A DNA stretch of 64,000 nucleotides from Psammoneis japonica (lineage: Eukaryota), in NCBI GenBank assembly GCA_008632985.1, contig QPGO01000072.1, positions 186,001 through 250,000 on the forward strand, written 5' to 3'. Positions 39,585-64,000 of the stretch are shown here, in pieces (the stretch's first letter is position 1; each line of letters begins with the position of its first letter). Made by a program: the position numbers and the translations under genes. The notes under the pieces were generated by a model that did not search any database, was not told the DNA's origin, and saw only the letters and a program-made list of their open reading frames with translations.

Positions 39585-39730
39585 AGTTCGTGACAAATTT
39601 TAGTCGTTGTAGTCATGCAGAACATTTGTTCACAAACGATCCTGAAAATGTTCAAACATTGCACATTGACGTTTCACGTCGTCCTTGCGGATCTTTGAGC
39701 GCGGAATCATTGTGGAAGCAAGAAGCGTCT
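39585..39730 (+). repeat. Diverged direct repeat, copy A (partner at 51211-51375)
   Basis: agttcgtgacaaattttagtcg.tgtagtcat...catttgttcaca.acgatcctgaa...tgcggatctttga...agcaagaagcgt is shared with 51211-51375. Confidence 0.8.
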
Positions 39731-40039
39731 GAGACTGTTACTCACCGAGAAAAGAGATGGTCGCATGAAAGGGCGAATCGTCTGCAGTGGGAAACCGACC
39801 CGAGAGTGGCCAGACAAAGACAAGTCAACCGGCCCCACTGGTGCATCCTCAGAAAGAACACGGCTGCGGCGATTGTGGTTGGCGCATGTGAAGAGCTCGA
39901 TGTCATGAGCACTGATGCACCAAACAGGCAAAGACCAGATCATGATGAAAATTGCAAGAGCATTGGGCAGCAACATGCATGTGTGGCGCTGGAAAAGGGA
40001 AAGAGAGTCCACTGCGTCCAAGTCATTGAGTCTGTTTGC

Positions 40040-43059: not shown

Positions 43060-43300
43060 CCCTCTGATGCCTTTTGGTTTTTCTGTCATTGGCACAACTG
43101 CCCAATGTCCCAAAGTGCCTGAGGAGGTTGGCATGCCACCACACTCTCACATGGGACTCTCACATGGGACAATCCCACTGGCGATTGTGCAGAATTGTGT
43201 GACAACAATGACAGCATTGGCTGGAAGTTCTTCCTGAATGGGCATTTGTCTGAGCATCCTCAGCACATGTGGGCTCCACAGCATGACATTCGAACATTCA
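43060..43300 (+). mobile_element. Possible non-LTR retrotransposon C-terminal relic
   Basis: Only the short motif DSIGWKFFLNGHLS, reminiscent of the IGW..F..G.LS motif after the zinc knuckle of diatom non-LTR elements. Confidence 0.3.
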
Positions 43301-43751
43301 TTTCTTTGTCGCATTGCACTTCCAGGTCTGAGAACACCTCCAAACATGTGATGCATGCCCCTTCTGTGTCGTTTTGCAGTCTCTTGACTTTGCCACTGCT
43401 TTTTGCTCTGCTTCCTGTTGTGTCTTCTTCACCCTGTCAATTTCTTCAATTTCAACCAGCAGTTCATGACATTTTGCCACTGTGATTTGCTGAAGTTTCA
43501 GCCTGTCTTTGGGAAGAATGCTCTTTGAATTGAGTTTTTTGGTGAGCTGCGCAAGGTCAGCTGCCAAGAGCTTGCAACATTTGTCCCTCTACATTGTAAA
43601 AGGCAATGCTCTGAGGCTCAATTTCTCAGGCGCAGGCTCTTGTTGTGTGGATGAGGATCAGCACCGATTTGTGAGCTGATCAAAGAATTTCCTTTGCACA
43701 GCTTCACAGAACAAGGTCAACTCCAACCAGCCGAGATCTTGTCATGATCAA

Positions 43752-44139
43752 GGGGGGTTGTCCCCATGTTTGTCCTGGAATTGTCATGGCATTTGAACAA
43801 GGACATTTGTGGTTTTATTTTTGAATGCAAAAATCACTTGCATTCACCCCCGATCGCACATGAAACTGAGAACATCAGGCACCACGATCGAAGCATGATG
43901 ATGATGGCAATGTCGACACAGCTCAAAAACGCAGTGGTCCATTCTCAAACATTTGATGCACATGTGACCTTTGATGCACAACAAACATGAAACAAATCAG
44001 AGTTGACAGACACACCACCTCTGTCACAGATTCATGGCTTGATGTTTTCGCCAAGGTGAAGCACCACGAAAATCAGGAAAAATCATGTGAGTCACAAGCC
44101 ACTCGGTTGCATTTGAGCCAAAAAAGCAGCAAATGACCC
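43752..44139. mobile_element. MITE copy 2 (family of 1162-1542)
   Basis: TCAA|GGGGGGTTGT...AATGACCC|TTGA; internal sequence colinear with copies 1 and 3. Confidence 0.75.
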
Positions 44140-44201
44140 TTGATCAACTCCAACTAAAATTTTGACCATCCACGTTTTTTTGCTCATTTGCGCATGATCA
44201 A

Positions 44202-44604
44202 GGGGGGTCATCCTCGTGTTTGTCCTGCCTGGAATTGCCCCGTGGCACCCAAATGAGAGCATTTGCAGCGTTCCTTTTTGAATGCAAAAATTGTTTGCAT
44301 TCACCCCCAATCATGCAGGAAAATGAGAACATCAGGCACTGCGATCAAAGCATGGCAATGACGGTGATGTCATGACATGGCTCAAAAATGCAGCGATCCA
44401 TCCTCAAACATTTGATGCATGTGTGACCTTTGAGACACACAACGAACACAAAACAAATGAGAGTTGACAGATGGGCCACCTCCTTCACAGACTTGTGGCT
44501 TGATGTTTTCACCATGGTAAAGCACGGTGAAAATCAGGAAAAATCATGCAAATCACCAGCCACTTGGTCAAATTTGAGCCAAAAAAAGTGGCAAATGACC
44601 CCCC
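44202..44604. mobile_element. MITE copy 3 with perfect 10-bp TIRs
   Basis: TCAA|GGGGGGTCAT ... ATGACCCCCC|TTGA. Confidence 0.8.
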
Positions 44605-45707
44605 TTGACTCCCACGACAGGGGCTGACTCCTCCAATCGGTTCATCTGGTGACACAATCTCTCTCCAATGTTGACCCCTTCAAACATTTGAGCCTCCTCT
44701 AGAGAGAGTTTCAAAGCCCATTCTCTGCTCTCTGTGATGTTCACATTTTGTTCCCACAACAATCAAATCAGATTTATTTTCTCGGATGCAATCAGCAGGG
44801 TGGCTCTTCTTGATGTTGCCATTGACCATGTGCAAGCAGTCACGCTCCCCCCCCCCAAAAAAAAAGTTTGCAGATGCACCCACGCATGACCTTCATTTTG
44901 GTTTGGAGGCACTTTGCATTCACACAAGTCCTCACAGTGTGAATCGTGATGCAGCTTCATTCACAAAGCAAAGGTGCCCCCCATTTGCCACCGAGTGTGA
45001 GATCCGCGGCCATTGCCGTGTCTCCTTCACAGCCCAAGAGTCAACAGACAAAGGAGGTGAAGCACACAGTGTGGGGTGATGGGCTGCTGTTGATGGCAAC
45101 GGAGACATGCGTCTTCAAGTGGGGTGTGATGGGCCAAACTGCAGTGGGAGCTCTGAAGAGAAGAAAAACATGTCAGTGCCGAAGTGCCGATGCTTCCTGA
45201 GCCCGTGGAAAGCACAAAACAGAGGATGTGACTCTCACTCAACATGAGGCTCTTATTTTCTGTTGTTAGCGCAAGTGGTGTCGGGGAGAGACAGCGTCTT
45301 GTTGAACAGTGACAATGTCAAAAGAGGAGGTCGATAGACGACAGACGATACAGCACCGGTAAAGCGTGGTTTTGTCGTGGTAAAAAGCGGAGCCTGCTCG
45401 CTCTGTGCTCTGGAGGGTACTGTACACACACACGGTACTGTAGTTACAGCAATTCAACGTCCGGGTTACTTCCGGGCTTGTGGACAGACCCATCGCCAAA
45501 AATCTGATGAACGACACAGCTGATGACTGAAAACCATCGCATCACAGAGATGACACAATCCACAGAAAACCCTGAAGAAGAAGGTCTCTGTTCTGTTTGC
45601 ACTTCTTGTCGACGCTTTACGATTGATCTCATTTTTGGACGATACGCAGTATCTCTAAGCGTTGAGGCCAACGACAGCAGAAAACGCATACCGGTTTCTC
45701 CAAGAAA

Positions 45708-47234: not shown

Positions 47235-50200
47235 AAGGTCCGTTCGGAACCGTAAGGTCCTTTTTTTAAAATAGAAGATTAAGGAAGCCTATGTAGAGCG
47301 GAAGGCAACAGCAGAGGGAGGCACGGAGGTAGCTGTAGAGACGGTAGAGTAAAAAGGTCGATGGACGCAAGACGAAGGGCGTTTTGTGGAAGGTATGGGT
47401 GAGGAGGGGGGCAGGGAGAGAGGAGGTGAATCGGAGGATGTGCGTAGAAAGGTGAAGAACAACGTTGTAGCCAAGAGTTTGGGTGGCCCACTGGGATGGG
47501 GTGGCTGTACGGTAGGTGTTTCCAAAGCGATCGGCGGACAGGCGACGCCATGCGGAGTCAGCAGAGGGAAGGATTGCAGACGGAGATGACAAAGCGTAGA
47601 GGAAGGCGGAGTGGGGAGGCATCGGAGTGACGAAGGTCAGAGGAAGAGGACCAGGGTGGCTTGGGCTGAGAGCAAACGGAGGGGGATGTAGAACCAAAGA
47701 GCAAGCGGTGGGCAAAGTAGCCGAGACCACCAAGGTGATCTACAGTGAAGGGGAGCAGAAAGATGCCATTGTCGCCAAGCGAAGAAACAACAAGGGATCC
47801 ATCGGTAGAGGAAGTAGAGGGGCCAAGAAACTTCAATCTCGCGCTCGAGTGGTGTGCCTCAGTTAAGATAGGAGAAGAGGGGGCAGGCAGACCTGGAGGA
47901 GGGCGAGAGGAAGCTTGAGGGACGGTGACGTCCACTGCAATGTAGTGATGGCGGGAGGGAGCGGAAAGGGAGGCGGGAGGGGGGATTGAAATGCCGACAT
48001 CGGCGGGACGGAGAAGCGGGCGGGTGGGGAGTAGGTTGGTGGGTTCAAGATGAACGTCATTGGGGGATCGACAGAACTCTGCAAGAGGACCCAAAGTTTG
48101 GGCTAGGATGAAAACAGTGTCACGGAGACCATTGGAAAGCTTGGACTTGTGAGCACGGCGGCAAGAAAAGGCATGATCACCGTAGGCATCCAGAATGGCA
48201 TGGCCACAGGGACAGGGAGTGTTGACAAGGGACGGAGGAAGGATGGGGAGACGAAGCTTACGAAGGGCGGCAACAGCGTGGGCGTCCGAAGAAAGGCAGG
48301 AGCTTGGAAAGCGACGAGAGAAGGAATGAAGAGGGAGGCTTGTAAGCGGAGACAGCAATGAAGGGAGTGAAGATTGCACGTCGTAAGATGAGTTAGCAAG
48401 GATGGAGGTCACTGCTTGTTGCTGATGTTCATGGTAGAGACGACGGGCCAGACCGGGGAGAGTGGCCGATTTAACCAGGGCAGCCAAGGAAGAAGAGGAA
48501 AGGGTAGAGGCGGAAGCCAGAACGGGAGCACAACGGCGGAAGAGCGTATAGAGTCGTAGGGAAGAGCGAGGGTTGGACCAGGAAGACAGGGAGAGCCGAA
48601 AGCAGCGCGGAAGGGAAACAGAAGCGCCAGATGGCAGGCTGACACCGTGCGAAGCAAAGCGGAACGAGCGGAGAAGCGACACCAAGAAGGAAGGAATGGC
48701 GGCAGTTGTTGGGTCCCGGAGACCAAACCCGCCTAAGGAGGCAGGAAGGAAGGCGATGGCAATGGAGTGGTCGGGAAAAGGAGCGGCGAAGGAAGTGACG
48801 TAGTGTAGAAAGCGGTGAGTGACGGCAAGGAGGAAATCTTGAAACGGAGAGGTCCAGAGAAAGGGGTCGGGAGGATTGTCGGGGTCGAAGTTGCAGCAGA
48901 AGTCAGCTCCAAGGAGGTGAGCAGAGGATGGAACAAAACAGTGCTTGAAGAGTTGAGCCTGGGTTTGTTTGTCATGGAGACGGGTGAGAAGCATGTCAAC
49001 TTTGTCGGAGAGAGCAGAGGAAGTGTCGGAAAGGAAAGAGGTGGCGAAGTCGTGGGAGCCGAGGGGCTGTCCAAGGAAGCGAACACCAGAGGTGAGTTCG
49101 GGGTTGTAAGAGGGGTCATTGGCAGGGTTTAAGAAGGAAAGTGCAGCACGGAGAGAATCGGCGCGGGAAGGGGGAAGAGCAGGGATGGGGCTAACACCGG
49201 CAATGGAGGTGAGGATCTTGGTTTTACGGAGGTTGAGGGAGATTCCGCAAGGGGCACCGAGGGCGGAGAAGCGTTCAAGGAACCATGGAAGTACGGAATG
49301 GGGAAGGAAAGTGTGAGCATCGTCAATGTAGGAGCCAACTGAGACAGAGGAACGGCCAGGAATACGTTCTTGAAGCTCTTGGTTAATCGGACGAAGAACC
49401 AGAGAGAGGACCAGGCTGGCGAAGACAGGGCCGAGAGGGCATCCTTGGGCAAATCCCTCTTCTTGAAGAAAGGAGCCCCAGGAAGAGTCGGGTCGGCGAC
49501 ACCAACATGCATTGGAACTTTGATGTAGAAGGTCAAAAAAAGGAAGCAGAGGATGGAAGGCAGGGGTGGAGGTGAGAACGTGTCGACAGGCATCTCGAGA
49601 TGCTTCGTTGAACATGTTGACGAGGTCAAGAAGAAGAAGAGCCTTGGTAGAGTCGGCAGAAGAAAGATGCCGTTCAATGTTGGCAAGAGCAGAGTGAATG
49701 AGATAATCGAGGCCACCTTTGACACCAATGCCAAATTGACCATCTGGGAGGAGGCACTCGGCAAATGCAGAACCAAAGAGAGTCATGACGACGGAGCCGG
49801 CAATGCGACGAAGAGCAGCACCGACGCCAATGGGGCGAAGCTTGTTGAGGTCGCTGGCATCTTTATGCAGAGCGACAAAGTAGTTCGAAGCAAATGAGGA
49901 ATGGACGGAGGAAGGAATGGAGCCATGGAGTAGAAGAAGGACAAGCTCACGAAAGGATGACAAGCAGGGGCGTTGAGCAACACCTGTTGGGGTTTTGGTA
50001 GAATTAGAGGGCGCAGGACTTGAAAAGGTCGGTAGAATCAGCAAAGACACCGGCAGCAGTCCCAGGCTTACATTTGGAGAGAGCGGAAAGAAGAGCATCG
50101 GAGGAGAGCTCAATGGGCTCATTATGAAGGGAGGAGGCCGAGCGAGTTGAAGGAGGATTAGGTAGATCGGAGGGGTGCAGGCGAGGAGGGTAGAGCTTGA

Positions 50201-51210
50201 GGATGGCAGGAAGGCGCTCAGGAGCAACGGCAGCAACAGGAAGCGCAGAGGTGAGCTTGGAGCAGGCCGAGTGAAAGTCATCTTCGTCGGCGCAAACTTG
50301 AGCGGAGCAGCAACAGGTGGAAGCAGAAAAGTCGGGGGAAGATGAGGAGAGGCGTGGCGCATGGGAGCAGGCTTCGTGGTAGAGTTGGCGAATACAGCCA
50401 CGGCGGAAGAGGGACAAGCGGGAGGCAATGGCAGGGCCAAACTTGGAGCGTGGCGGGACAGGAGCAAGAATGAGAGCTTCAAAGAGTAAGAGCAGCTTCC
50501 AGAAGGGAGCAGAGTCACGTTGCCACGTAGGAATGAGGTGGGAGGGGTCAGAGAGAGGCTGGGAGGCGGCTAGTACCCAGCTTGTCACATGATGAAGAGC
50601 AGAGTAGAGTTCCTTACGGGCGGAGGACGAGAGCTTGCGGCGGCAGGAAGCTCGGAAAGGCGGAGGCTCGAGTGCAAGAGCATGGAGCCATTGTAGCGAG
50701 GGGCCCCAGTCACCTAGATTATGGAAGGACGAGAGAACAATGTCAGTGTTAAGGGAAGAGCGAGGAGCGAAGTGCTTGTTCTGCAAGTGATTGCGAAGGT
50801 GGGTGGTAGACAGGCAGGTGCATTGGCCATGATTGCAATGCCTGCAGACGTGCAAACCAGCGGTGTCGAAGAAGGACGTGGGTGCATGAGAAAGCGAGAG
50901 GCGGGGATGCTCCTGGCGAAGATGGCTGCGTATAGAAGTAGGAAGGGATGATGCATCAATGGAAGGAGGGGACCAGGAGCAGAAGGGGCAAGTTGGCGAG
51001 GCACGGGCTTCGGTGGGTTCCACGAGGCGATGAGATCGCGGAGGGAGTCGATGTCAGGGGCTGCAGCCCGGATGGCTTCTTCGTAGAAGGGTTGCCAGGT
51101 AGAAAGGCGGGCCGGGCAGTAAGTACCTACGAAGGCATCAAGGACATCCAAGAGTTCCATCTCGCGCTGGGACTGTTGGGGAGAAACCGATCTGAGTTCC
51201 ATGCCGCAAC
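47235..51210 (-). mobile_element. CRE-clade-like non-LTR retrotransposon (C2H2 fingers, RT, restriction-like endonuclease)
   Basis: N-terminal CPFC..H....H and CRHC..H....H. RT motifs KLRPIGVG, GQFGIG, LDLVNMFN, GFAQGCPLGP and YIDD. C-terminal CPCG..D.YGDHAFSC and RPADV...AVDVT...LPF. Short A-tail on the minus strand (T7 at 47261-47267). Frameshifts near 50005 and 47600. Ends are approximate. Confidence 0.85.
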
Positions 51211-51485: not shown

Positions 51486-53026
51486 ATGGGGCAGTTATGC
51501 AGCAAGTCAGCTCCGTCCAGCGTCGAGAGGAATATGGGAGATAGTCCGAGGAAGGAACCTACAGCATCAGCTCCGCCACCTCCAGCAGCGCCAGCAGCTG
51601 ATACTACAAAAGACGAGCGCACGAAGGAATTAGAGTCGTTTCGGGAAAAGTTCCGAGGATCCGTGTACTTTGATGCCCTTGATCATTTTGAAGAAGATGA
51701 AGAAGCCTACAAAGTTGAACCCTTGCGCTATGCTCCTGCCGCAGCTGCCAACCCGCACCCACGTGCCTCGATTGCTGTGGACGTGGACGCCACCATGCTC
51801 AAGGATAAGCGGGAGGACATGAATCAACGTTCCGCCTCTGTCGTTGTTATGGAGAATCTGAAGTCGCCTTCTATCAAACTCAGCATGGAAGGATATCCCG
51901 GAGATTTGACTCCGACGGAACTTGAAGCTTGTAGGCTGTTTCGCCAGCGACTCAAGCAAAAGGATCCTGCTTACTATGACATGGTGTTGGCGTTGGCACC
52001 CGGTGAGGAAGAGCCTTACTCGATCTGCCGCTTTATGCGAGCGAGGAACTTTGATGTTGATGCTGTGATTGAGATGATGGACGAGTCCATTGGCATGTGG
52101 AAGGATGCAGCAAAGCATAAGTTTTACCCCACAATCGAAGATGCAGTTGGGTGCAGCGAGGCCGTCTTCAATTCGCAGTATCCCTCTGTTTGGTCTGGTC
52201 TTGCAGAGAATGGACAGTCGTTATCTTCCTTCCAGCAAGCGCCATGTCCATTGAAGGAATACAGTGTTTGGCTGAGGTTGACCAGTTGAGTAATTATTTC
52301 TGGTACACCTCAAAACACAGGTTTGCAAAGCGCTTGATCGAGCTACAGGAAGATAACCCTCAAGTTGTTGTACGTGCAGAACAATTTTATGTCGTCGACT
52401 TGAAGAATACAACTTCATCACAGTTCTCAAAGACTGCTATTGAAGCCGTGAAGAACATGTTCATGCCATCCTCGTGTTTCCCCGAGATTCTTAATAAGGC
52501 GGTGGTTCTAAATGCTCCAAGCTTCTTCTCCTTCATCTGGCGCATCGCGAAAGTATTCCTGGATCCACGTACGCAGCAGAAGGTTGAGATCTTCTCCAGT
52601 GCCAGCAAGGGTAATGAACGGTTGAAAGAGCTCATGAAATCTGAGTACATTCCATCTGACTACGGTGGTACGGCGCCCTCCATTGATGAGATCTTTCGTG
52701 AGCAATACTGTGGTGCAGGACGTCGACAAGTTCATAATCTAATGACTCTTGAAAAAAAGAGAAAAACGGACTGGAAGTTCACCTTGAACGCAAAAGAACG
52801 CGCGACCGTGACAGTGTACAGTTCTTCTCCCGGTCCAGCTGACTTTGTTGTTTCATCTGGCGGCAAGAGTATTGCGCAGTCAAGTGTGAAAAGCAATGGC
52901 AAAAAGGGCGCGTACTCGACAGAGATTGCTTCCAAGTTGGAGGGCTCCGGCAATTTTCAAGTCTCGGCTCATTCGCAGTCGTATAGCACCGAATACTTTT
53001 TGGTCATTGTCAGTATCATAATGTAG
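51486..53026 (+). CDS. Sec14/CRAL-TRIO lipid-binding protein (one apparent 1-nt frameshift near 52213)
   Basis: MGQLCS N-terminus (possible acylation site), GYPGDLT, ICRFMRARNFDV, VVDLKN, CFPEIL...LNAPSFF...FLDPRTQQKV, IPSDYGG. The two ORFs join as ENG/TVVIF if one base is added. Confidence 0.82.
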
Positions 53027-53519
53027 CAGAACAAATTTTAAGTCCAATGTCAGAATTATGTACCATACTCCGATTATCAACAATTTCGCCCTGTTTCAAT
53101 CAAATTAGTTGTCTAATCGTGGAATGAATTGTAAAAGAATAATGGGAGACACGATTGCCAAAGTCTATCAGCTAGAAACGAATGTTCAGATGAAGAACGG
53201 CTATTGAGGCTTGCAAGGGGCTCGAGTCACTTAGTTCAGTTAGACTTGCTTCTCTCTTGATCATTCTGTTCGCAAGTTCGAATCACGGAACTACGACCTG
53301 GTCAATCCTAAGACAAGATGAAAAAACCGCAGAACTCGGAAAAAGTCCCCTCTAGTTCTAGCAAGCCGGTCACTTCCCTACCTCTACTAGAGGATATGAA
53401 GGTTAAGTCTAACAAAATCAGTTTAACACATACACAAATTACCAAAATTTGCAAAACCATAGAATTCCCATAGCAACTGAGTAGAGCGAGCCACGCGTAA
53501 TTTCCCTTGGTGACTCATC

Positions 53520-54166
53520 TCAAGGCTCTTCCTTCTCAAACTCCTCCAACGACTTTCGCAGGGACTCTGACGGCAAAGAATGCCTGCGTTTGTCTTCATT
53601 TGCGTCTTCATCTTCTATTGAAAAGCCGGCGGACAGCAACTCTTCAGAATTTTGCGGGTCACTGATCGATACCCGACGCTGTGGAGACAAGGAGGACAAC
53701 TTCTGTCGCCGCGCCTTCTCCTGCTCATCCAAGAGAACCCCCATTTCATCCCTTTCAATCTCCATCACTGGACCCATCTGATCTTCTGGATCGCTTTTTG
53801 TAGTAGATGCCGTGTCTTGTCGATTTTGAAGGGCCTTTTCTTTGACCGTGACGGTACTTTTCCCTAGTTCTGTCGTACTTTCTGCTTCCAATGGCACGCT
53901 TGGAAGCGACACAGTCATACGACGGGAAGCTCTAGTCATGTCTGGAAGGTTTGCCGTCCCCTGACATATCGCATATCGCGCAACTCTGTACCACCTCCAA
54001 TGAGGGTAGCATTTCTTCACGGATGCATATCGTGGATGCAAATGGAGGAAGAAATTGAAAAAGCCTTGAAAAGGTTGCAATGTGTTACCCAACAGCACAA
54101 TCCAATACTTTGGGGGTACGTTCTCCACAAGCCGTTTTGCATTTGCAATGGTGATCCAGGCATAAG
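53520..54166 (-). pseudogene. 3' part of a 7TM GPCR-like (cAMP-receptor/Git3-like) gene interrupted by Copia
   Basis: YAWITI...LQPFQGFFNFFLHLHPRY followed by a hydrophilic tail. It joins in frame to 61414-62299 when the element and one TSD are removed (IFFNT|YAWIT). Confidence 0.8.
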
Positions 54167-54400
54167 AGTCACGACTCAACGTCATTCTGGTCGCATCTCA
54201 CGACTACAACCCAGACTCAGATTTTCTCTTCGAAATAATTAGCTCATCACAAAATCGATTCAAACAGAAGCAACGACATTCGTCATAATTTCTAGACAAC
54301 GACTTTCAAAAAGCGTCTGTTTACCTCTGTCGCTATTCATATTGCTACCAACCTCCGAGGTCTTATCCATCCTACTCAGCTGCAGGACTGTATCTCGACT
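54167..54400 (+). repeat. 5' LTR (AGTC...GACT termini)
   Basis: Ungapped match to 61175-61408 with 12 substitutions. Confidence 0.95.
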
Positions 54401-54413
54401 GGTCACAGAGACC
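54400..54413 (+). other. Putative primer-binding site
   Basis: TGGTCACAGAGACC directly at the 5' LTR end; resembles the tRNA-iMet type TGGTATCAGAGC. Confidence 0.5.
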
Positions 54414-54562
54414 AATTTGCGCGTTGACGAGAGCTCCTGACCGAGTCATCGTCACGGACGCTTTCGGTTTTTGATTTTGAAGCAAACCCGGGAAATAGCT
54501 GAGTCTCTCTCGCTTCTCTCGTCTTCACCCTAACAAGAACCTCCCACACTACACTCTCTGTC

Positions 54563-57500
54563 ATGGCTGCCATCGATCCAGATGTTCTGGCGAAGGCGTT
54601 TGCCGATGCAATGGCCGCCAACGCCGCGGCGACCGCTCCTCCGGCTCCAACCAAGCCGTTACGTGGTGGAATTCACCCAACCCACGGGGTTTACATTGGT
54701 GGTTCCAAACTCAACAACAACTGCGAACAATCCAACGACAGAACCTGCCGACTCGCCTCTCAGCGCCGTCATCCCAAGGCTCTCGACTCGATAGAACGAT
54801 CTCTCCGCGATCAACAAGCTTCCGCAATGACTTCCAAGTTCAACGGTCGACTTGAGATTTCGGACGGTTCCATCAACGAGCTTGACAAGGACCATTTCGT
54901 CAAGACTGTTCGAGATCTAGTAGAAGCCCACGGTCAGCAGACGTTCTACCATGTCAAGGACAGCGACGACAAGGTTCAACATGTCTTCGACCATCTTCAC
55001 GAGTTTACTGTGACCGATCTCGTGAATGAGTACACGGTTAGGAAAGCAGCTACCGATGATGCCAAGTACGACGAGATCGAGCTCGACGATGTCGGGCTCT
55101 CTCAACTTCTCGTTCACTCAAGAATCACTGACACCTTTCGCGAGAAAATCGAGACCAAGTTCAACCATCTTTCGGACTGCCAAGACTACCCTGGATCTGT
55201 TCCATTCATGATGGCTCTCGACACTTGCAACACTAGCGCTCTAACGAACATTGAGACGGCTGAGAAGCAGCTGGAAGACCTTAGTTTGGTTGACTATCCC
55301 GGCGAGGATTGCACGGACTTTGCCACCGAAGCTCTTCGCATCGTGAAAATTGTGCAGACCGACTGCGCGCTTCCGGCGAACACAAGCTCCAAGCTACTCC
55401 ACAAGATCTCCTCTACGTCCTCTGAACACTTCAATCGCCGAGTCTACAACAAGCTCGACGACGTCAAGGCTGTGGAACGCAAGTGCCGCCTCAAGAATCC
55501 TGCTGACATCGTGTCCGACAGTGATTGCAGAACGCTCGGACCGGTCGGCATCATTGCGTGGATTCAAGAGCAACACAATGAACTCGTGAAGGACGGGGAA
55601 TGGCCTGCATTAGTCGCCAAGCTACCCGAGAGTAATCTTTCAACTACGGACAACCCTGGGAAGACGAAGCACTGTCATGGTTGCGGTCTCGAGGGGTGCG
55701 CCAAGAAGACGTGTCCGAAGTGCAACGCCAAACCGCCGCGCGACGATCCTCCTCCCAATCCGCCGCCTGCAGACGACCCCTCCAAGAAGAAGAGGCGACC
55801 CATCGCTGTCTGGCGCACTAAATTTGACGGAGAAACGAAGAAGGATAAGAATGGCAAGGAATGGAAGTGGTGTGCCACGTGCAAGGCGAAGGGTGCCGAC
55901 AAACCTGGAATCTACCAGAAGCACTCTACCGCGGAACATACCGACGACCGCAGGCAACCTCCCAAGGAGACCCCAGCCGGGAATTTGTCTTCCGTTGCTG
56001 ATCCGGACAGTGGCGTGCCCATGGGTCCGCCCGCTCAGACTACCAAGGAACCAGAGGGAGACGAATCCGACCCCAACGAGTTGGTTTTCACGGGAATGTG
56101 GTGCGCGGCTACGGATCCCGTTGCCGACCCGGATTTCTGTTCCGCCCCTGTTGCTGCTGCAACCATTGTTACTCCGGCTTCTTCGGCCGAGAGGGAGAGC
56201 GATGCAGTCGTCAGTGCTGAGGTGGTTTGCATCGAAACGAGCCCACCTGCACTCACCTCAGTCGTGGATCCAGTCGTGTCTCCCATCGTGGTTGAGACTG
56301 TCACTCCCGAAGACGCCGATGACTTCTACGAACACTCCGACGCTTTCTCTACCTTTGAAAACGAACCACCGGCTATTGAGTTGTTTCCGGCCTCGAAGCT
56401 GTACTCCATCAAGCATCCAGATGAGTTCTTTGACGCTCCCGCACATTTGACGGACATGCTGTCAGACGACACCAAGTTAGATCTCATCCTTGAACACGAC
56501 GTACACTTTGAAGACGCACACTACGACTTGCCTCCGTGTGTTACGTATCGTGGCTTCGATTTCTACGATCCAGAGGTCCTGGACACGGATGATTGTCACG
56601 AGGACGTCGAAGACGAGCCCACTTCGCGTCGCTCACTCTTGGGTCGAGTCAAGCTGTTCACATTCTGGCTCGCCGCCATGTTTTGGGAAACGGTGCTGCA
56701 TCTTTGCTTTGCTCCGATCCCATGCATTCCTCGAGCTCTACGCCGCCAGCGCAAACTCCCAACTTTGCACGGGTTTCCAGCCTCCTGGATGGTCCTGTCC
56801 GTTGCAGTGATGGTGTGGTCAGCAGTTTACGCCGGTCAACAGCCCGAGCATCCCTTCTCGCACGTGCCAAGTCGTTTTTCGACCGCTGGCTCTCAAGTCT
56901 ACCACATTGTGGAAGAGCTAGATGACCGGATAGTGTTGGATGCGGGGTCACTGTTCGAATGTCACAGGATCAAAGGCACGCAAGTACTCACCGAGTTTGT
57001 CGCGCGCCATCCATCACACGCACTGAGCACTCGTCTCAAGGCCTGCTGGGAGAGCCCAGAAGTGGCTGAACGGTCTGATGCGATGGACGAATCAGCCTTC
57101 TTTGACACCTGTGAGGAACTGGAACCTCTCGACGACCAGAAGCATTTCTTTGACGCTCTTGAGGACTTCAGCCCAGATTTCTTCCGGTTTGACAAGCTCT
57201 GTCTGCCGCATCACATCGTGGACACTGCCCATTTTCAAGATCCTGTGGAACTGTTGGAGGAAGCAAGTGTTAGACCAGTCGTCTGTGACACCTCCACCAT
57301 CCAACTGCTCACCGGACAATCACAAGCCGACCTCCTTGCATCCGATCCGCAGGCTCTCATCGGTCTGTCGGACGAGGCTCTCACGGTCGTCATGGACACT
57401 GGTGCCACGTTAGCTGTTGCCCCCGACAAAGATGATTTTACGGGGCCTGTGACTGTTCCCAAGAAACCCTTGCAGATCAATGGGATTGCCAACGGTCTTG

Positions 57501-60500
57501 CCATCCAGGGTGCCGGTCCGGTTGCGTGGGTGTTCACAACGCCGAGTGGGGCTACCATCCAACTGAACACCATGGCATGCTACGTCCCTGGAGCCCGTCA
57601 GCGCCTGCCATCGCCTCAACGCCTCTTCAACGAAGAGAAGGGGACACGTGGGAAGTGTGAGGGCGATGAAACCACTTTCCGTTTACATGTTGACGGGGTG
57701 GGCAAGTTGGTCGTGCCATGTCATCCATCAAGCCACTTGCCTGTTGCGTCGATGACCAAGGGCGCATCTGCCGCTCCTCAAGTGAACCTTCAGGTCCTCA
57801 ACGAGGAGAATCAAAACCTCACGGCAGGCCAAAAGCTTCTTCTCGAAATGCACGCCCGTTTTGGCCATTTGAACTTTGGTCGCGTCCAAGCACTTCTCCG
57901 CGCAGTTCCGTTCCTTTCGAACCGTTTCAAGTCCGCAGCGAAGTGTGACCACCCAAGATGCGAGGCATGCGAATGTGCTAAAGGTCACAGACGCTCTCTT
58001 GGATCTACTCACAAGTCGACAGTCCCTGAACGCGACGGGGCCCTTCGAGCTGACCATCTTCGACCGGGTCAGGCTGTCAGCGTTGATCATTTTGAGTCGC
58101 GCCTTTTAGGCCGCACCTTCGACTCTTATGGCAAAGCCACGTCCAAGCAATTCAAGGGCGGTTGCATCTTTGTCGACCACGCCTCTGGCTATGTCCAGGT
58201 CGAGCACCAACTGGGTTTCTCCGCTGTTGAGACGATGCGCGCGAAGCAAGCGTTTGAGAAACATGCTTTGGACCACGGGGTCATCGTCCAAGAATTTCTT
58301 GCCGACAGTGGCGCTTTCAAGGCCAACGCTTTTGCACAACATGTGCGAGAACATGAACAACATCTCCGTTTTTGTGGAGCCAACGCCCATCATCAGAACG
58401 GCGTCGCAGAGCGGGGCATCCACAGCATCTCCAACATGGCGAGAGCGATGTTGCTTCATGCATCAATCCACTGGAAGGGGGGAATTGACAGCTCCCTGTG
58501 GCCCATGGCAGTTTCTTGTGCCACGTGTGTCTACAATGTCACCCCAAATTCCAAAGGACATTGCCCAGTGGACATTTTCACCGGTTCGACAGTGCCAAGA
58601 CATCGGTTGCGCGACATTCACACATGGGGATGTCCAGCGTACGTACTTGACCCGACCCTCGCTTCCGGGAAGAAGCTCCCGCATTGGGAGCCTCGCACTC
58701 GTCGCGCTTTGTTCGTGGGACTCAGCACCATCCATTCCAGTGAGGTTCCTTTGGTCCTCAATCTTCAAACTGGAAGTGTTGCACCTCAGTGTCATGTGGT
58801 CTTTGACGATCTCTTCACCACCGTGCCATCAATCGAGAGGGAGACGGATCCACCTGATCACTGGGAACACTTGTGCCTCAACCAATTGACATGCATCCCT
58901 CTGGAGAAGGATCAGGCAGTTCATTTACACGATGAGTGGCTCACCCCTCCAGAGCGTCAACGTAAAGAACGAGAACTAGCCAGAGCAACACGCATTCGCG
59001 GGCATTTTGAGCCCACTCCATCGATTGCTGTGCCGGATTCACCCACTTCTCGCGACGACGTCACCGATCGAGTCGCACCTGCGACTCAGCAGCCAACGCC
59101 ACCAGTCCCACCTGCGACTCAAACTCCTACAGACTCTGCGGACTCTGCGCCAATTCAGCCACCTGAACCTCAAGACAGTGACGGACTTCCGCCACCCGAA
59201 GCGCCGACGGAACCAACAGCTCCTCCCCCAGTCGAGACACCTCCTGTGATGAATCCAGAGGGAGCGCCAGGGCTGCGACGGTCTTCACGGTCAACCAAGG
59301 GACAGTTCAACTCTGCCAAGTTTGTAGATGAGGTCTACTTCAGCTCCGTTGAGAAAATGCCGCCACCGATCGGACACGAGGCTCAACTGGCGCATCTGGC
59401 GACTCTCGAGACAGATTTGGACAGTGGCACCATCAATGTCGGCGATCCACGAGCCTGCGCAGCTAGCAAGAAAACCAAGGACCCTGATGTGCCTTCGTTG
59501 CACAATGCTCTGAAAGGTCCGGACTCCGACGAATGGATTGAGGCGATGAAAATTGAAGTCAACGCACTCGTGCATCATCGAGCCTGGAAAGCAGTCGAGC
59601 GTCAGCCGCACATGAATGCACTTCCAGGCACATGGGCACCAAAGCTCAAGAGACTCCCAGATGGAACCCCTCTCAAGTATAAGGCCCGATGCTGCGTCCG
59701 CGGTGATTTGCAGAAAGAAGGAGTCGACCACTTCGAAACCTGCGCGCCGGTTGTGCAATGGTCCAGTGTCCGACTCATGCTCACTGCGGCATTAAAGGAG
59801 GGATGGACCACACGACAGGTGGACTGTGCCACAGCCTTTTGCCAAGCTGATGTCGCCGAGGAAGTTCACATAACACCGCCGAAGGGATTTGCGCCAAGGT
59901 CGGGACTCAATGTGGTTCTCAAACTTTTGAAAGGACTGCACGGCCTAAAACAGTCTCCCAAGGGCTTCTACGAGAAGTTACGAGCTGGTTTAACCGAGCG
60001 CGGATGGGCACCTTCAGCCATGGATCCCTGTTTGTATTTCAAAGAGGGCATGATGTGTGTGGTGCACGTCGACGACACCGTTTTTGCTGGAGCTTCAGCT
60101 GAAGCTCTAGAAGCCGAAATTCGCAAGTTAGGAGTCTCCGATGACGAACATCGCCACGCATTTGAACTTAGAGACGAAGGAGAAGTCGGTGACTTTCTCA
60201 GCATCAAGATCGAAAAGCTCTCCGAGGGTCGATTTCTACTCACTCAACCCGGTCTAATTGACAAGGTCCTGCGCACCGCACAGATGCAGGATTGCAATGG
60301 AGCATCTGCTCCAGCTCTACCTGCGGCTGTTGGTGCCGACACGGACGGCCTGCCTTTTGATGAACCCTGCGATTATCGCTCAGTTGTTGGAATGTTGATG
60401 TGCTTGGCAGCGAACAGCCGGCCAGACATTGCACATGCCACACATCAAGTGGCTCGATTCTCGTTTGCGCCCTGAGCGTCCCATGCTGCTGCAGTGAAGC

Positions 60501-61153
60501 GGACACTCCGACACCTCAAAGCAACTGCTGCTGAAGGTCTCATTCTCAAACCTGCGCAAGATCATCGAGTTGATTGTTACGTCGATTCTGACTTCGCGGG
60601 GTCATTTGGTGTGGAAGATGGTCAAGACCCAGTTTCTGTCAAGTCCAGGACTGGATGCCTTGTCCACTGCGCCGGCTGCCCGCTTGTCTGGGTGTCCAAG
60701 CTGCAGACTCTTGTGGCATTGTCGACTGTGGAAGCGGAACATGTCACACTTTCTCAAGCTGTGCGCGATCTCATCCCCATTCGTGAAGTTCTCAAGGAGC
60801 TCAACCACCACGTGTTCGGAAAGTCTGACCGCCAAAACCCAATCACGACTCACTCCAAGGCTTTTGAGCTTGCAACCCAAGGCACCGATGACTCGCCTGT
60901 AGAGCAGAATGTCCTGCCTGCGTCCGTTGTGTACGAAGATAACTCCGCGTGCCTCAAGTTCGCACGTGTGCCCAAGTTGTCTCCGCGAACCAAACACATC
61001 GGCATCCCACACCACTGGTTTAGGACTAAAGTCGAACAATTGGAGATCGACATCCAACCCATCAGCACTCTAGAGCAACTGGCCGATCAGTTCACGAAGG
61101 GACTACGGACCGATGCGTTCCGCACGGCTAGAAAGGCTCTCATGGGCTGGCAA
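54563..61153 (+). pseudogene. Copia gag-pol polyprotein, inactivated
   Basis: Protease VMDTGA; integrase HARFGH..CEAC, VSVDH, LADSG, NGVAER; RT; RNase H YVDSDFAG, EAEH, YEDN, LADQFTK. One in-frame TGA at 60473-60475, RT motif HVDD at 60065, and the probable original stop now CAA at 61151-61153. Confidence 0.93.
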
Positions 61154-61165
61154 GCTCTCTCGGTT

Positions 61166-61174
61166 GAGAGGGAG
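61166..61174 (+). other. Polypurine tract
   Basis: GAGAGGGAG immediately before the 3' LTR. Confidence 0.8.
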
Positions 61175-61408
61175 AGTCATGACTCAACGTCATTCTGGTC
61201 GCATCTCACGACTGCAACCCAGACTCAGATTTTCTCTTCGAAATGATTGGCTCATCACAAAATCGATTCAAACAGAAGCAACGACATTCGTCATAATTTC
61301 TAGACAACGACTTTCAAAAAGCGTCTGTTTGCCTCTGTCGCTGTTCACATTGCTGCCAACCTCCGAGGTCTCATCCATCCTACTCAGCTGTAGGACTGCA
61401 TCTTGACT
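61175..61408 (+). repeat. 3' LTR
   Basis: Ungapped match to 54167-54400; carries 11 of the 12 apparently derived substitutions. Confidence 0.95.
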
Positions 61409-61413
61409 GCAAG

Positions 61414-62299
61414 TGTTGAAGAAAATCAGTGCGCAGAGGATGGATCGTACGGCAACTCGGCGACCGCACGTGTTTCCAGACATTAGATTTGACCCTTGGA
61501 AGCTGCTTTCGCGTCTCATGGCCCTAATGTTGCTGTTGATGCTGCCACCCCGTCTTTGTGCCTCCTGTCGATGATCACATTCTCGGCGAAGCACTGTGTG
61601 GCAAATGACGGCAAGAGACACAAACTGTGCGGCAAGCGCCAGCAAGGTGGGCACCAGGTTGAAAGCCCATTTGTAGATTTCGTGATCTTCTCCTCGTTGA
61701 CAGTCAACTCTTGGATTTGAAATGCACCCCAGCGGGAAAGAATTGATGGAGCATCTTCCCACCGGTGCGGGGTTGTAAATGTCGAGTCCAAGTCCGGCAA
61801 AAGCCGTTCCCAGCGTAAAGAGCATTGCCGTCACATGAAAGACGGGCTCCATCCTGCGAGAAATAAATTCATCACGCAATCCACCATGCAGGGTCACCGC
61901 GAAGAAGATCATGAGGAAAGCATTGTAGATCGGTTGCGCGTGCCCAAGCTGAAGAAAGAACCCCTGCATGGCACACGTCTGGGTGTTGCCATGTGTTCCT
62001 TCAAACGGCAACCTCGATGGCATGAGCCAAGTCCCCAGAAAAAACATGAGGGAAAAGGGAATGTCCGAAACGCCAATGGCAAACATGAGACGATTCTGAG
62101 TCTTCCTGAGTTTGAATTGTGAAGACTTGAGAATCATGTGCACAATGAGGCAGGATCCAACGAGAGACAGAGCACCAGTGACTCGAGGCATGTTGTGCAG
62201 GGCTCGTCGCTGTGCTTGTGTGAATCTGGGTCCACGAGGTCCGAGAAACTGCGGCGGCCCTCCTGCACCTCTCGGCGGCCCTCCTGTTGTTGCATTCAT
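61414..62299 (-). pseudogene. 5' part of the interrupted 7TM GPCR-like gene, TpA-mutated
   Basis: PRVTGALSLVGSCLIV..NRLMFAIGVSD..GNTQTCAMQGFFLQLG..YNAFL..MEPVFH..CSINSFPLGC..CQRG. Several expected Tyr appear as His/Cys (IVHMI, GTHGN, EDHEI, ICHTV, ILCAL). Confidence 0.8.
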
Positions 62300-63021
62300 G
62301 GTTTGTTCTTCACTTTCAAACCCAGTTGTGTTTTGATGCAGTTTGTCTCTTCATCAGCTGGCAACTTGAAACTGTGTCAACCCTTTGTCCTTTAGATTTT
62401 ATGTTGGGTTAGGGAAACTACAGCTAGACTGGTGTCAGTGTCGGGGGTTGGGGACGTTGGATTTTTGTCCGCGAAGAGAGGAGGAGTTTTACCGCTACAG
62501 TGTATTAGCATGTCTGAAACTACCGTAGAGTAGCGGCTATTATGAAGAGGAAAGTGGGTAAATTATAATTTTTATCTTGAGTAGATGTTATTTATCATCT
62601 ATTTTTTAAAGAATGTCTATTGTACATTTCCCCTACGTACATATTAGTACTGTAATATGATGTATACAAACTTTTTCATTGCACTTTATGTACACTTATG
62701 TTGTAATGTACTGTGATCTATCGTTATTTATGGTAAAAGAGTCTTTATAGATTTGTCTTTTCAATGCGAAATTGTTATACTGTAGAAAGCTACGTGAGAC
62801 AAAGCGACGACATCGAGAGGTAGGTTCACGCAAGAAAACTGTAGAGTTTCCCAGTGCTGCTAGTAGCTACGTAGAGGCCATGATGATGATCAGAATTGTT
62901 CGCGTTAGTCTTGCTTTTGTAATGCTCTCTACTAGTAGTGATATGGATGGATCAAGAATTTGAATTTCGAAGAAATGTACTCTATCATAATGCTGATTCT
63001 ATTCAAAACTGGCGCTAGACG

Positions 63022-64000
63022 TTAAACATCGCTATCATCATCAGATGCGTGGGATGTCACGGCAATGTCTTTTTCACCGGATAAAGTAGTGCCGGAGCGA
63101 GGCTCACGGATGCAGTCTTTTGTACCAATGATAGACAACACGACTGGGAGGAGCATAAGGCCGTGGCTAATACCAAGCAGTACCAGAGCCATGAAGGTCA
63201 GGAAAATCGTACTGAAGATCTCGCTCGTGCTGAATGCAAGTGGAATCACACCAAGAAATGTCGACATGCCCCCAATTAGGATCGAGCTGCCCATTGTCTG
63301 AAGCATATCCTTTGTCTTTTCGAAACGTTCCCCAGGCGCTTCGTAGTACCGAAGCAGTGCGTGCATAATGAAATCAACAAGGAGCCCAATTGCCATGACG
63401 AGGGATATGTAGCTCACTGCGTTGATGTGTACTCCCCAGAATTGAAGCAAGCCTGCGAAATGGAGAAACACGTAGATTGCATTAGTTGGAAAGAGATGGA
63501 CGATACGACGAATCTTGTGTATGTTTCTTCGCTGATGTACTTACCAAGAAGATCAACGTATAGTATGGCTATCATTGGAGCAACAAACAACACTGCTGAC
63601 CAATGCGGAATAAAGAAAAAGCCAAGGGCGCTGACTGCCACCACACCAAGAATAGTGGTAAGAATAAGCTCGTCGGCCGCAACAGAATAAAATTCCCAAA
63701 TATAATACGTCGACTGGAACGTGAAGAAGGGCCAGTCCTTCTTGTCCTTGTTGATGGGTTGAGCTCGAGTTACTTTGCGTTGGTTTTCAAGAGCATTTAT
63801 CTGGTCTTGAACATCTTCTTGATCAACGTTGTCCATGGTGAAATGACAAGATGAAGCGATAATCGATCCATCGTCACCGCGCCAGATATGATCTTCGTAT
63901 AAATCTCTGTAAACCGGGTCTTGCAAAAAGAGGTCGACCTGTTCATTGAATGTCAAGCTGCCGGTAGCATTCTCGGATCCAACAAAGTTGTAAAAGTCAC
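63022..64000 (-). CDS. Patched/NPC1-like sterol-sensing RND-family membrane protein, 3' end (continues beyond the window)
   Basis: YYIWEFY, multi-TM region, LVMAIGLLVDFIMH, MGSSILIGGMSTFLGVIPLAFSTSEIF, HGLMLLPVVLS. GT-AG intron at 63453-63544. Confidence 0.88.

Follow-up and report, generated by a model that had tools for sequence, protein, structure and literature searches.

One-sided mutation of TpA beside a heterozygous Copia insertion, with a sharp edge upstream of the interrupted host gene and a possible link to its transcription

The locus analysed here is a heterozygous insertion of a Copia element into a single-copy membrane-protein gene, and the allele that carries the transposon has been altered by A:T to G:C changes at TpA on one side of the element only. 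The window (the whole 64,000-nucleotide stretch of DNA that was analysed, from a probable diatom) holds the transposon allele, and the uninterrupted allele is present in the sample's own reads (runs X1 and X2). As the states before and after mutation are found in one sample, the locus is unusually informative. We tentatively favour, at somewhat short of an even chance, a regional, transcription-linked TpA mutator that acted after the heterozygous insertion and whose tract would end at the start of the host transcript. The insertion, the gene and their surroundings are laid out as follows.

53520 to 54166, minus strand: 3' half of the host gene, unmutated, 214 codons plus stop
54163 to 54166 (left, TAAG) and 61410 to 61413 (right, CAAG), no strand: target-site duplication of 4 bp, one TA>CA separating the copies
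54167 to 61409, plus strand: Copia element, with LTR pair and target duplication
54167 to 54401, plus strand: 5' LTR, essentially unmutated, direct repeat of 61175-61409, 1 derived change
54563 to 61246, plus strand: Copia gag-pol frame, with one in-frame TGA at 60473-60475
61175 to 61409, plus strand: 3' LTR, 11 derived changes, 4 TA left
61412 to 62299, minus strand: 5' half of the host gene, coding part, 296 codons, ATG at 62299
61414 to 62392, minus strand: TA-depleted host tract, comprising the 5' half of the gene and 93 bp upstream of the ATG, 8 TA in 979 bp
62393 to 63021, no strand: AT-rich spacer between the host gene start and the stop of the Patched/RND-like neighbour, 66 TA in 629 bp

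The host gene is one open frame split by the element, which lies antisense to it (element on the plus strand, gene on the minus strand). The start and N-terminus of the 5' half align with the homologues P0001 (47% identity) and P0002 (64%), and the 3' half matches residues 286-356 of P0001; between the two halves the reading frame is continuous through the target duplication. Pfam returned no family for either half. The hydropathy profile of the product gave four to six segments above threshold, and the structure model of P0001, which is of low confidence (pLDDT 42.3), shows seven long helices between residues 27 and 332. A metagenome scan with a 30-nt stretch of the gene gave no match, and of 107 pattern matches in a second scan, for protein relatives, none was confirmed. 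A multicopy 5' half, which would have undermined the preliminary description of this locus, was rejected because X1 read depth over the upstream half is 52-56, the same as in the left flank. Within gag-pol, residues 1674-1919 match RVT_2 (E = 1.3e-35), and gag_pre-integrs and SH3_retrovirus matches, both under the curated cut-offs, lie upstream of it; the type of reverse transcriptase, the LTRs and the target duplication together place the element among the Ty1/Copia LTR retrotransposons. No close copy of it was found in the protein collection, the best relatives being 50-58% identical over large parts and the named ones coming only from Fragilaria crotonensis.

Depletion of TpA in the upstream half, as noticed in the preliminary description, was borne out by counting. 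Eight TA sites remain in 61414-61930 (at 61448, 61484, 61525, 61674, 61776, 61816, 61864 and 61926) and there are none in 61927-62392. TA then resumes at 62393, followed by 62400, 62410, 62419 and 62425; the first of these lies 94 bp upstream of the ATG, close to the 90 bp or so originally estimated. The resulting 467-bp TA-free gap ranks 16th longest in the 64-kb window, and all 15 longer gaps fall within the heavily mutated blocks at 1519-12934, 31563-34749 and 39739-45254. As a reference we used the window's own ordinary coding sequence (23,055 bp), which has 34.0 TA per kb and a longest TA-free gap of 234 bp (775 gaps); among its 1,889 sliding 466-bp windows none had fewer than 4 TA, and the median was 16. 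The tract is poorer in TA than any ordinary coding stretch of the window. In the downstream half, 53520-54166, 18 TA are present over 647 bp and the Tyr codons are kept, as had also been described, and the CpG observed/expected ratio in 61001-62500 is 0.65-0.91, i.e., normal in the tract.

Comparison with the uninterrupted allele gives the direction of change. Its empty-allele joint, 54163>61411, skips 7247 bases. The downstream half differs from the empty allele at 0/621 positions (53543-54163) whereas the upstream half differs at 37/977 (61411-62387; Fisher p = 1e-8), which confirmed the asymmetric spread that had been proposed. About 30 of the 37 differences are C/G in the window and T/A in the empty allele. 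The site-level spectrum rests on the 23 of the 37 differences that are listed: 17 of these 23 read TA in the empty allele and CA (9) or TG (8) in the transposon allele, 17 of the 20 listed A:T>G:C changes fall in TpA against 13% expected (p = 1e-12), and 0/23 are at CpG sites. The empty allele restores Tyr103, Tyr120, Tyr234, Tyr241, Tyr243 and Ile159, of which Tyr120 and Ile159 agree with both homologues and Tyr103 with one (P0001). The opposite polarity, that of fungal repeat-induced point mutation (RIP), in which the 5' LTR would have gained TA, was rejected, as the empty allele and the homologues set TA as the ancestral state.

The LTRs tell the same story from within the element. The two 235-bp copies are 95% identical, and of their 12 differences the 3' LTR carries the derived state at 11 and the 5' LTR at 1 (binomial p = 0.006), so that the 5' LTR is indeed barely mutated, as first reported. 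Relative to the 5' LTR, the 3' LTR has TA>TG 6 times, TA>CA 3 times and CG>TG twice; of the 12 TA in the 5' LTR, 6 stand in an ATA/TAT context, a share like that of normal DNA. Taken with the allele differences, the 11 against 1 changes indicate that the DNA itself was mutated once the element had inserted, that both strands were affected and that the change was confined to one side. As the LTRs were identical at insertion and yet fared so unequally, the aim must have been regional and not set by repetition as such; simple repeat recognition is ruled out, and regional targeting via transcription or chromatin is indicated. The lack of strand bias in the flank (9 TA>CA to 8 TA>TG) argues against simple one-strand guidance, making an R-loop type of transcript guidance unlikely.

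Change along the host flank is patchy.

61530 to 61658, no strand: first saturated patch, 16 allele differences in 129 bp, 12/12 TA of the empty allele converted
61940 to 62009, no strand: second saturated patch, 5 allele differences in 70 bp, 4/4 TA converted
62010 to 62392, no strand: TA-free stretch, 383 bp with 0 TA, where each of 1,964 normal windows has at least 4

The lightly affected parts lie nearer the element (61414-61529 keeps 3 TA and 61659-61939 keeps 5) and the saturated patches farther from it, which agrees with the earlier conclusion that spread did not simply decay with distance. The last directly seen allele difference lies in the second patch. Mutation is proven by the empty-allele comparison for 61410-62009, and the support for 62010-62392 is indirect. 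In the latter interval a single full-depth X1 contig, which starts at 62010 and agrees with the window up to 62401, suggests that the alleles may be identical; the counts suggest that some of the remaining 12-14 differences fall in 62010-62387, and the X1 contig points against this. His54, encoded in this stretch, sits where both homologues carry Tyr. The view that the uninterrupted allele is not itself TpA-poor therefore holds for 61410-62009 and may fail for 62010-62392. Among the X2 contigs over 61411-62387 none has the letters of the transposon allele, and their coverage holes, including 62409-62775 and the element interior, prove nothing. In the 5' UTR the trinucleotide products are TGT 7 and CAT 1, against 23:8 in the adjoining spacer by itself, so that this skew is uninformative. 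The spacer has one TA>TG-type difference at 62431, and the window differs from the reads by 10 changes of ordinary type in 62402-62870. Three X1-only differences lie 1.5 kb to the left, at 52633-52648, two of TA type and one of CG type.

The transition to TA-rich DNA is abrupt.

62386 to 62393, no strand: edge of the TA-depleted zone, change point with support interval 62373-62393

To the left of the change point 0 of 88 TA/CA/TG sites are TA, and to the right 64 of 135. Past 62500 the GC content is down to 34%, from about 50%. An X2 contig of the intact allele covers 62387 down to 61411 and continues, across the joint, from 54163 down to 53543, so that its end lies 6 nt from the TA edge. In the neighbouring gene a canonical 92-nt GT-AG intron (63453-63544) is absent from X2 and the frame opens once it is removed, so that X2 behaves as spliced RNA and the contig is apparently RNA-derived; no run is registered as RNA. 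That the contig ends at 62387 hints, weakly, at an edge close to the transcript 5' end, but contig ends do not define transcript ends, as this contig breaks off at its other end 23 nt before the stop codon. From the TA edge it is about 630 bp (629) to the stop of the Patched/RND-like neighbour, and the 3' end of that gene could equally set the limit of the tract.

Other TA-depleted blocks in the window bear on how such an edge should be read. Of six other block edges tested, five were equally sharp (1393, 31191, 35848, 39610 and 45254, with support intervals of about 40-130 bp) and that near 12934 was gradual. The five sharp edges lie 200-400 bp beyond the bounds of intact genes, some at promoters (1393, 35848 and 45254) and others at 3' ends (31191 and 39610), so that a generic barrier or selection could set them. 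The preliminary description had placed a sharp end at the probable transcription start: the sharpness stands, and the link to a start does not follow from it, as a sharp edge alone is no pointer to transcription initiation. In the older blocks CpG is depleted along with TpA, CpA/TpG being the product of either, and TA-only shoulders of 140-500 bp flank both sides of these TA- and CG-depleted cores.

One such zone offers a parallel case to the interrupted host gene. The gene at 33928-35337 lies in a TA-only zone adjoining a fully depleted core; an atlas search gave weak MYND leads for this open reading frame (0.85), and a homologue search confirmed a MYND relative. At 4 positions that are Tyr in both homologues this MYND-finger gene shows Tyr>His/Cys, and its TA-only zone stops about 500 bp beyond the stop of the gene.

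On the inner side of the tract, site-by-site polarity was impossible to establish within the element for want of close copies, and conserved Tyr columns were used instead, drawn from 45 of the 120 listed relatives. Cys or His is read at 25/44 conserved Tyr columns of gag-pol. The inferred Tyr changes are 14 Cys to 2 His up to 59825 and 2 Cys to 7 His from 59867 (scan-corrected permutation p = 0.0066), defining one further feature.

59867 to 61010, plus strand: last part of the element interior, in which the inferred Tyr>Cys changes switch to Tyr>His (Tyr columns)

This switch is a possible inner limit of the two-strand tract, which would then lie near 59850. An inner edge taken from all TA is weak (2dLL 13, support 56522-57137), and from TA in unfavoured context alone the support spans 55422-60892. 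The strand-biased loss of TA over the initial 5.3 kb of the element may be inherited and predate this insertion. As most of the TA loss in the element has this other strand signature, the mutated zone cannot be equated with a 5-kb transcript.

In the mechanism that we favour, a DNA-level process converted TpA to CpA or TpG (A:T>G:C) on either strand after insertion. It reached the 3' LTR, roughly 1 kb of host DNA as far as the promoter-proximal end of the gene and, in all likelihood, some 1.3 kb at the end of the element interior; the 5' LTR and the other flank escaped. The host promoter would be the symmetry breaker: transcription from it would pass through the 5' half of the gene and enter the 3' end of the element in antisense, head-on to transcription of the element. 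Such transcription would single the region out to a TpA-directed mutator by way of small RNA or silencing chromatin, and the tract would stop where the host transcript starts. Transcript-guided targeting of mutation, the core of the preliminary description, is plausible. It is tempting to go further and to speculate about a diatom genome-defence mutator with a new adenine/thymine-directed DNA chemistry, an enzyme that would turn TpA into CpA/TpG with a preference for a 5' A or 3' T flank and would be aimed by a transcription unit entering the transposon, not by repetition, its tract running from the host transcription start over the promoter-side flank and the facing transposon end only; in this full form we consider the idea rather doubtful.

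Silencing chromatin nucleated in the element could also have recruited a TpA mutator and spread until it met nucleosome-free promoter DNA, with no role for a transcript, the host promoter acting as the right barrier and the active promoter of the 5' LTR as the left one. The spared 5' LTR and the TA-rich promoter DNA to the right of 62393 would fit such spreading, as would the equal change of both strands, the TA-only shoulders around the older cores and the five other sharp edges just outside intact genes, at promoters and 3' ends, although edges beside intact genes may merely reflect selection against mutated alleles. Spreading alone fails to explain why the 3' LTR, the same as the 5' LTR at insertion, formed no barrier, and it does not account for the 0/621 changes in the left flank; we regard it as unlikely, if worth serious attention. 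Leakage of the RIP kind is improbable. Here the mutator would be aimed at the repeated element and spill over in patches, with the one-sidedness and the position of the edge due to chance and the edge sharpened by the jump in composition at 62393. Such leakage into single-copy DNA is documented for fungi (PMC9453070), the tract is patchy, the GC content drops beyond 62500, and the X1-only differences at 52633-52648 would count as spill on the left. However, the equally repeated 5' LTR has 1 change against 11 in the 3' LTR, 37/977 against 0/621 is far from chance, and the saturated patches lie farther out than the sparsely changed ones; moreover, a TA in favoured context at 62400 and the 66 TA of 62393-63021 survive beside 383-466 bp without TA.

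Two further explanations move the changes away from the integrated DNA or deny them altogether. Adenosine deaminases favour A>G with a 5' T neighbour, and the TpA context resembles this preference; dsRNA from convergent transcripts could have been edited and then fixed by reverse transcription and gene conversion, in which case the tract would equal a transcript. The sense-strand-only pattern of the first 5.3 kb of the element (14:2) would be expected if edited RNA had been reverse-transcribed before insertion. In contrast, the changes in the flank and the 3' LTR are on both strands and intermixed by site, where a single cDNA carries the edits of one strand, the LTRs differ though they are copied from one template, and conversion by cDNA at the locus is without support, so that we consider this route very unlikely. 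Least credible is that nothing happened in place and that the differences reflect ordinary haplotype divergence or an ancestral TA-poor state. The alleles may be the same in 62010-62392, by the single full-depth X1 contig, and the 10 window/read differences in 62402-62870 are of ordinary type. Yet 0/621 stands against 37/977, 17 of the 23 listed differences are TA>CA/TG, the LTR pair carries the same spectrum, and Tyr103 (in one homologue) and Tyr120 and Ile159 (in both) match the empty allele and not the window; for 61410-62009 this explanation is already contradicted.

The nearest known process is fungal RIP, which leaves dense, dinucleotide-biased transitions on both strands, is tied to transposons and duplicated genes and, by leaking, disables genes in flanking unique DNA (PMC9453070, PMC3105345). 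The tract resembles it in its dense transitions, dinucleotide preference, link to a transposon, use of both strands and reach into unique DNA beside a repeat: as in RIP leakage, host positions are changed (37/977) in DNA whose read depth (52-56) is that of the other flank. The direction is opposite, RIP changing C:G to T:A at CpA and creating TpA, the tract showing A:T>G:C at TpA and destroying it; RIP makes stop codons and the tract removes them. With TAA and TAG erased, reading frames remain open despite dense transitions. RIP is pre-meiotic and depends on cytosine methyltransferases of the RID/DIM-2 type. It would also be expected to mutate all duplicated copies by homology, whereas here one LTR of the pair was spared (11 against 1).

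Decay of methylated CpG fits other parts of the window better than the tract. The older blocks have lost CpG and TpA alike, and 2 of the 12 LTR differences are CG>TG, but CpG is normal in the tract (0.65-0.91), 0 of the 23 listed flank differences are at CpG, and in the old blocks TA loss extends 140-500 bp past CpG loss. APOBEC/ADAR footprints are strand-biased hypermutation limited to the element and inherited through reverse transcription; this may apply to the first 5.3 kb of the element, whose 14:2 sense-strand bias fits, in contrast to the tract, in which host DNA and one LTR were changed after integration with a 9:8 split. Small-RNA-guided silencing systems deposit chromatin or cytosine-methyl marks and not point mutations, and the tract consists of point mutations. 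Silencing guided by small RNA on nascent transcripts (plant RdDM, fission-yeast and nematode nuclear RNAi; cf. bioRxiv 10.1101/089763) would predict targeting along a transcription unit that ends at its start, which is the model put forward in the preliminary description.

In our literature search we found no report of A:T>G:C mutation at TpA acting on transposons and neighbouring genes. To our knowledge, transposon defence by point mutation is a fungal speciality that works in one direction only, C to T. The outcome described here is fungal-like, arises in a probable diatom and runs in the opposite direction, from A:T to G:C at TpA. From this locus it is clear that mutation takes place in the integrated DNA itself, that it extends into unique host sequence and that identical LTRs are not treated alike. 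If the mutator is indeed aimed by transcription units, this would be the first time that the process has been captured with both alleles resolved, the empty allele of the heterozygous insertion being untouched. Should the tract really end at the transcript start, that link would give a direct handle on how the mutator is aimed and would account for the loss or diversification of transposon-adjoining genes in diatom genomes.

The locus comprises the following features.

54167-61409, plus strand: Copia element (RVT_2, E = 1.3e-35)
54167-54401 (5') and 61175-61409 (3'), plus strand: LTRs of the Copia element, a direct repeat
62299-61412, minus strand: 5' half of the interrupted host gene, 296 codons
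54164-53523, minus strand: 3' half of the host gene, 214 codons, stop codon at 53522-53520
54163-54166 (TAAG) and 61410-61413 (CAAG): 4-bp target duplication, host reading frame continuous across it

No Pfam family matched the host gene. Its two relatives are P0001 (508 aa, 47% identity), which aligns to both halves, and P0002 (216 aa, 64%). A low-confidence structure model of P0001 (pLDDT 42.3) has seven long helices within residues 27-332, and a '7TM' product is plausible on this model. The best named relatives of the element polyprotein (54-55% identity) belong to Fragilaria crotonensis, a diatom; the Copia frame of ~2,220 codons has a TGA at 60473-60475 as its sole in-frame stop.

The TpA (TA) depletion reported in the preliminary description for the upstream half proved exact: 61414-61930 contains 8 TA and 61927-62392 contains none, the next being at 62393, 94 bp upstream of the ATG. 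Ordinary coding sequence in the window carries 34 TA per kb with a longest TA-free gap of 234 bp, and every one of its 1,889 sliding 466-bp windows holds at least 4 TA. The downstream half retains its TA (18 in 647 bp), as had also been described. We aligned contigs of public runs from a single sample of a single study over 52500-63500. Runs X1 and X2 each carry a contig joining 54163 to 61411 and skipping 7247 bases; it represents the uninterrupted (empty) allele, with a single TAAG copy. X1 contains paired allele contigs of similar depth (30.6/26.7 at 61500-61688 and 27.2/28.6 at 61940-62009), thus the insertion is heterozygous or else the sample is evenly mixed. The X2 empty-allele contig matches the window throughout 53543-54163 and departs from it at 37 positions in 61411-62387 (Fisher p = 1e-8), of which about 30 have C/G in the window and T/A in the allele. 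Among the 23 listed differences, 17 have TA in the empty allele and CA (9) or TG (8) in the window, the rest being three other A>G changes and three C>T changes outside CpG; 17 of the 20 listed A:T>G:C changes lie in TpA, compared with 13% expected (p = 1e-12). Tyr103, Tyr120, Tyr234, Tyr241, Tyr243, and Ile159 of the empty allele are His, His, His, Cys, His, and Met, respectively, in the window, and the empty-allele residue is shared by both homologues at positions 120 and 159 and by P0001 alone at position 103. The LTR pair gives the same spectrum: 11 of 12 differences are derived in the 3' LTR (TA>TG 6, TA>CA 3, CG>TG 2) and one in the 5' LTR, in agreement with the earlier remark that the latter is barely hit, while the right copy of the target duplication adds one more TA>CA. 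Altogether, the allele, LTR, and duplication data indicate that the changes arose after insertion, in place, from A:T to G:C, with either strand intermixed, and on one side only. Two of the three outcomes that the preliminary description named as refuting, an uninterrupted allele that is equally TpA-poor and a multicopy 5' half, are excluded for 61410-62009, where the empty allele holds TA and X1 depth is 52-56 compared with 55.4 on the left.

Smaller differences were seen around the locus. In the CRAL-TRIO gene, 1.5 kb left of the element, the window differs from X1 at 52633, 52642, and 52648 (TA>CA, CG>TG, and TA>CA in the window) and matches X2; this cluster may reflect an isolated hit by the TpA process. 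Across the AT-rich spacer 62402-62870 the window also departs from all read contigs at 10 sites, six of which are small indels, and it does so again at 52869-52870, a GT/AC doublet; either the window contains assembly errors here or the genotypes differ slightly.

The last allele difference directly seen is at 62009, and the evidence on 62010-62392 conflicts. Mutation of this segment is supported by 0 TA in 383 bp, compared with a minimum of 4 across 1,964 normal windows, by His54 where both homologues have Tyr (the Val53-His54 codon pair being derivable from Ile-Tyr via three TpA changes), and by the 12-14 X2 differences that lie beyond the 23 listed. Against an allele difference, one X1 contig at full depth (52.1) starts at 62010, one base past the last difference, and matches the window to 62401; two differing alleles normally break such a contig. 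These observations could be reconciled if, to the right of 62010, the two alleles were identical by descent or heterozygosity had been lost. The tract on the transposon-bearing chromosome probably does extend to 62392.

Fitting a change point to the share of TA at TA/CA/TG sites placed the right edge of the tract between 62386 and 62393 (support interval 62373-62393): none of the 88 sites left of it is TA, compared with 64 of the 135 on its right. Beyond the edge, 66 TA are retained in 629 bp, including one in favoured context (see below) at 62400, with at most one TA>TG-type difference, at 62431; the stop of the neighbouring gene lies 629 bp from the edge. This Patched/RND-like gene (minus strand) bears on the nature of X2, which carries the guessed label 'DNA?'. 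An X2 contig skips from 63453 to 63546, dropping a canonical 92-nt GT-AG intron (63453-63544), and the frame after intron removal has no stops in 294 codons, therefore X2 behaves as spliced RNA. All four X2 contigs aligned map to genic or LTR sequence. The one from the intact allele spans 62387 down to 53543, ending 6 nt from the TA edge and halting 23 nt before the stop codon; contig ends are not transcript ends, and this proximity hints only weakly at an edge close to the 5' end of the host transcript.

Inside the element, we compared the polyprotein with 45 of 120 listed relatives, using columns with Tyr in ≥60% of relatives. The 44 conserved Tyr columns hold Tyr in 11 cases, Cys in 16, His in 9, and other residues in 8; the entire interior is therefore mutated and not just the 3' half. 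The ratio of Tyr>Cys to Tyr>His is 14:2 up to 59825 and 2:7 from 59867 (within 54722-61010; scan-corrected permutation p = 0.0066). From 59867 rightward, including the 3' LTR, duplication, and flank, there are 20 TA>CA and 16 TA>TG changes, compared with 2 and 14 in the first 5.3 kb (p = 0.006). The sense-strand A>G bias of the first 5.3 kb is probably an older or pre-integration footprint, as if gained at the RNA/cDNA stage, and we infer that the unbiased part, ~59850-62392, is the in-place tract, roughly centred on the 3' LTR. TA density by itself does not place its inner edge.

The window as a whole is eukaryotic and intron-poor, and contains a DUF6824 gene, a domain typical of diatoms; with the Fragilaria relatives of the polyprotein, this points to a probable diatom. 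In blocks 1500-13000, 31500-33000, and 40000-45000, TpA and CpG are both nearly absent and CpA and TpG are ~2-fold elevated; TA-only loss extends from the second block to ~35800. Five of six other block edges tested are as sharp as the one beside the host gene (1393-1435, 31191-31249, 35796-35862, 39610-39649, and 45206-45335; support ~40-130 bp), the sixth (12872-13317) being gradual, thus sharpness is not special to this locus. Two AAA_16 paralogues end 217 and 227 bp before a block edge, and three reading frames have an edge 330-410 bp upstream of them; where the adjoining gene is intact, the edge may be set by a barrier or by selection. Moving into a block, TA loss sets in first and CpG loss follows 140-500 bp later, which gives the older blocks shoulders depleted in TA only. 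The TA-only zone adjoining the depleted core 31192-33000 on its right contains a second affected gene:

33928-35337, plus strand: MYND-finger gene, open for 470 codons

Its two relatives (43% and 38% identity, one with zf-MYND) both have Tyr at four sites where this frame has His or Cys. The TA-only zone spans its upstream region and body and stops ~500 bp beyond its stop codon, a single case compatible with mutated zones tracking transcription units.

Surviving TA is in ATA/TAT context in 14% of cases in the old blocks and 17% in 57000-62392, compared with 48% in normal coding sequence (a coding-only figure; the tests, p = 3e-8 and 5e-6, respectively, used a broader normal set). The process prefers TpA with a 5' A or 3' T. 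In the host 5' half, favoured-context TA is reduced to 1.0 per kb (normal 16.4) and remaining TA to 7.2 per kb (normal 17.7); in the 5' LTR and host 3' half, TA by context is normal. Patches at 61530-61658 (12/12 TA converted) and 61940-62009 (4/4) are saturated, whereas 61414-61529 retains 3 TA and 61659-61939 retains 5, seven of these eight in unfavoured context. Saturation thus lies farther from the element than sparing, which argues against simple decay with distance. Elsewhere, an RVT_1 reverse-transcriptase element (47561-50569, minus strand) has an extreme plus-strand purine excess (GC skew ~0.4, AT skew ~0.3) and has lost favoured-context TA (2.7 per kb) while retaining other TA (14.3 per kb).

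A TpA-specific A:T>G:C process acts on DNA in place, on both strands and regionally, sparing one flank and one of two LTRs that were identical at the start. Our best, still tentative, explanation is a transcription-marked region with the tract ending at the host transcript start. Transcription from the host promoter would enter the element at its 3' end and run against the element's own; small RNA or silencing chromatin would then mark the region so transcribed, and the tract would stop where the host transcript begins. Chromatin spreading halted by promoter barriers is rather unlikely; the balanced 9:8 strand ratio of the flank changes, which speaks against a one-strand R-loop mechanism, does not discriminate it from transcription marking.

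Stochastic leakage of the RIP kind is more doubtful still. Fungal RIP with leakage (PMC9453070) is the closest known system by function, and its defining direction and repeat-wide action, tested at this locus, were not found. RNA editing fixed via cDNA would resemble the strand bias of the first 5.3 kb, and in view of the in-place changes on both strands is very improbable for the tract; that no in-place event occurred is scarcely credible given the allele and LTR comparisons. Chemically, the changes could come from deamination of adenine, or from a modified thymine that then mispairs. A full-text literature search, with subscription journals largely outside it, returned no account of transposons hypermutated by TpA>CpA/TpG changes, and none of a RIP-like process in diatoms.

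In the older blocks, the direction of mutation follows from paralogous segment pairs, which show excess TA/CG loss over the reverse classes: 5756-6736 compared with its paralogue at 14779-15723 has TA>TG 19, TA>CA 15, CG>CA 20, and CG>TG 16, with 6-9 in each reverse class. This segment of block 1500-13000 is a heavily mutated paralogue of part of a DOMON/cytochrome b561 gene, therefore duplicated host genes are affected too, and not transposons alone. Stop codons in the old blocks are TGA in 565 cases, compared with 27 TAA and 21 TAG; the process thus erases two of the three stop codons, leaving misleadingly long open frames.
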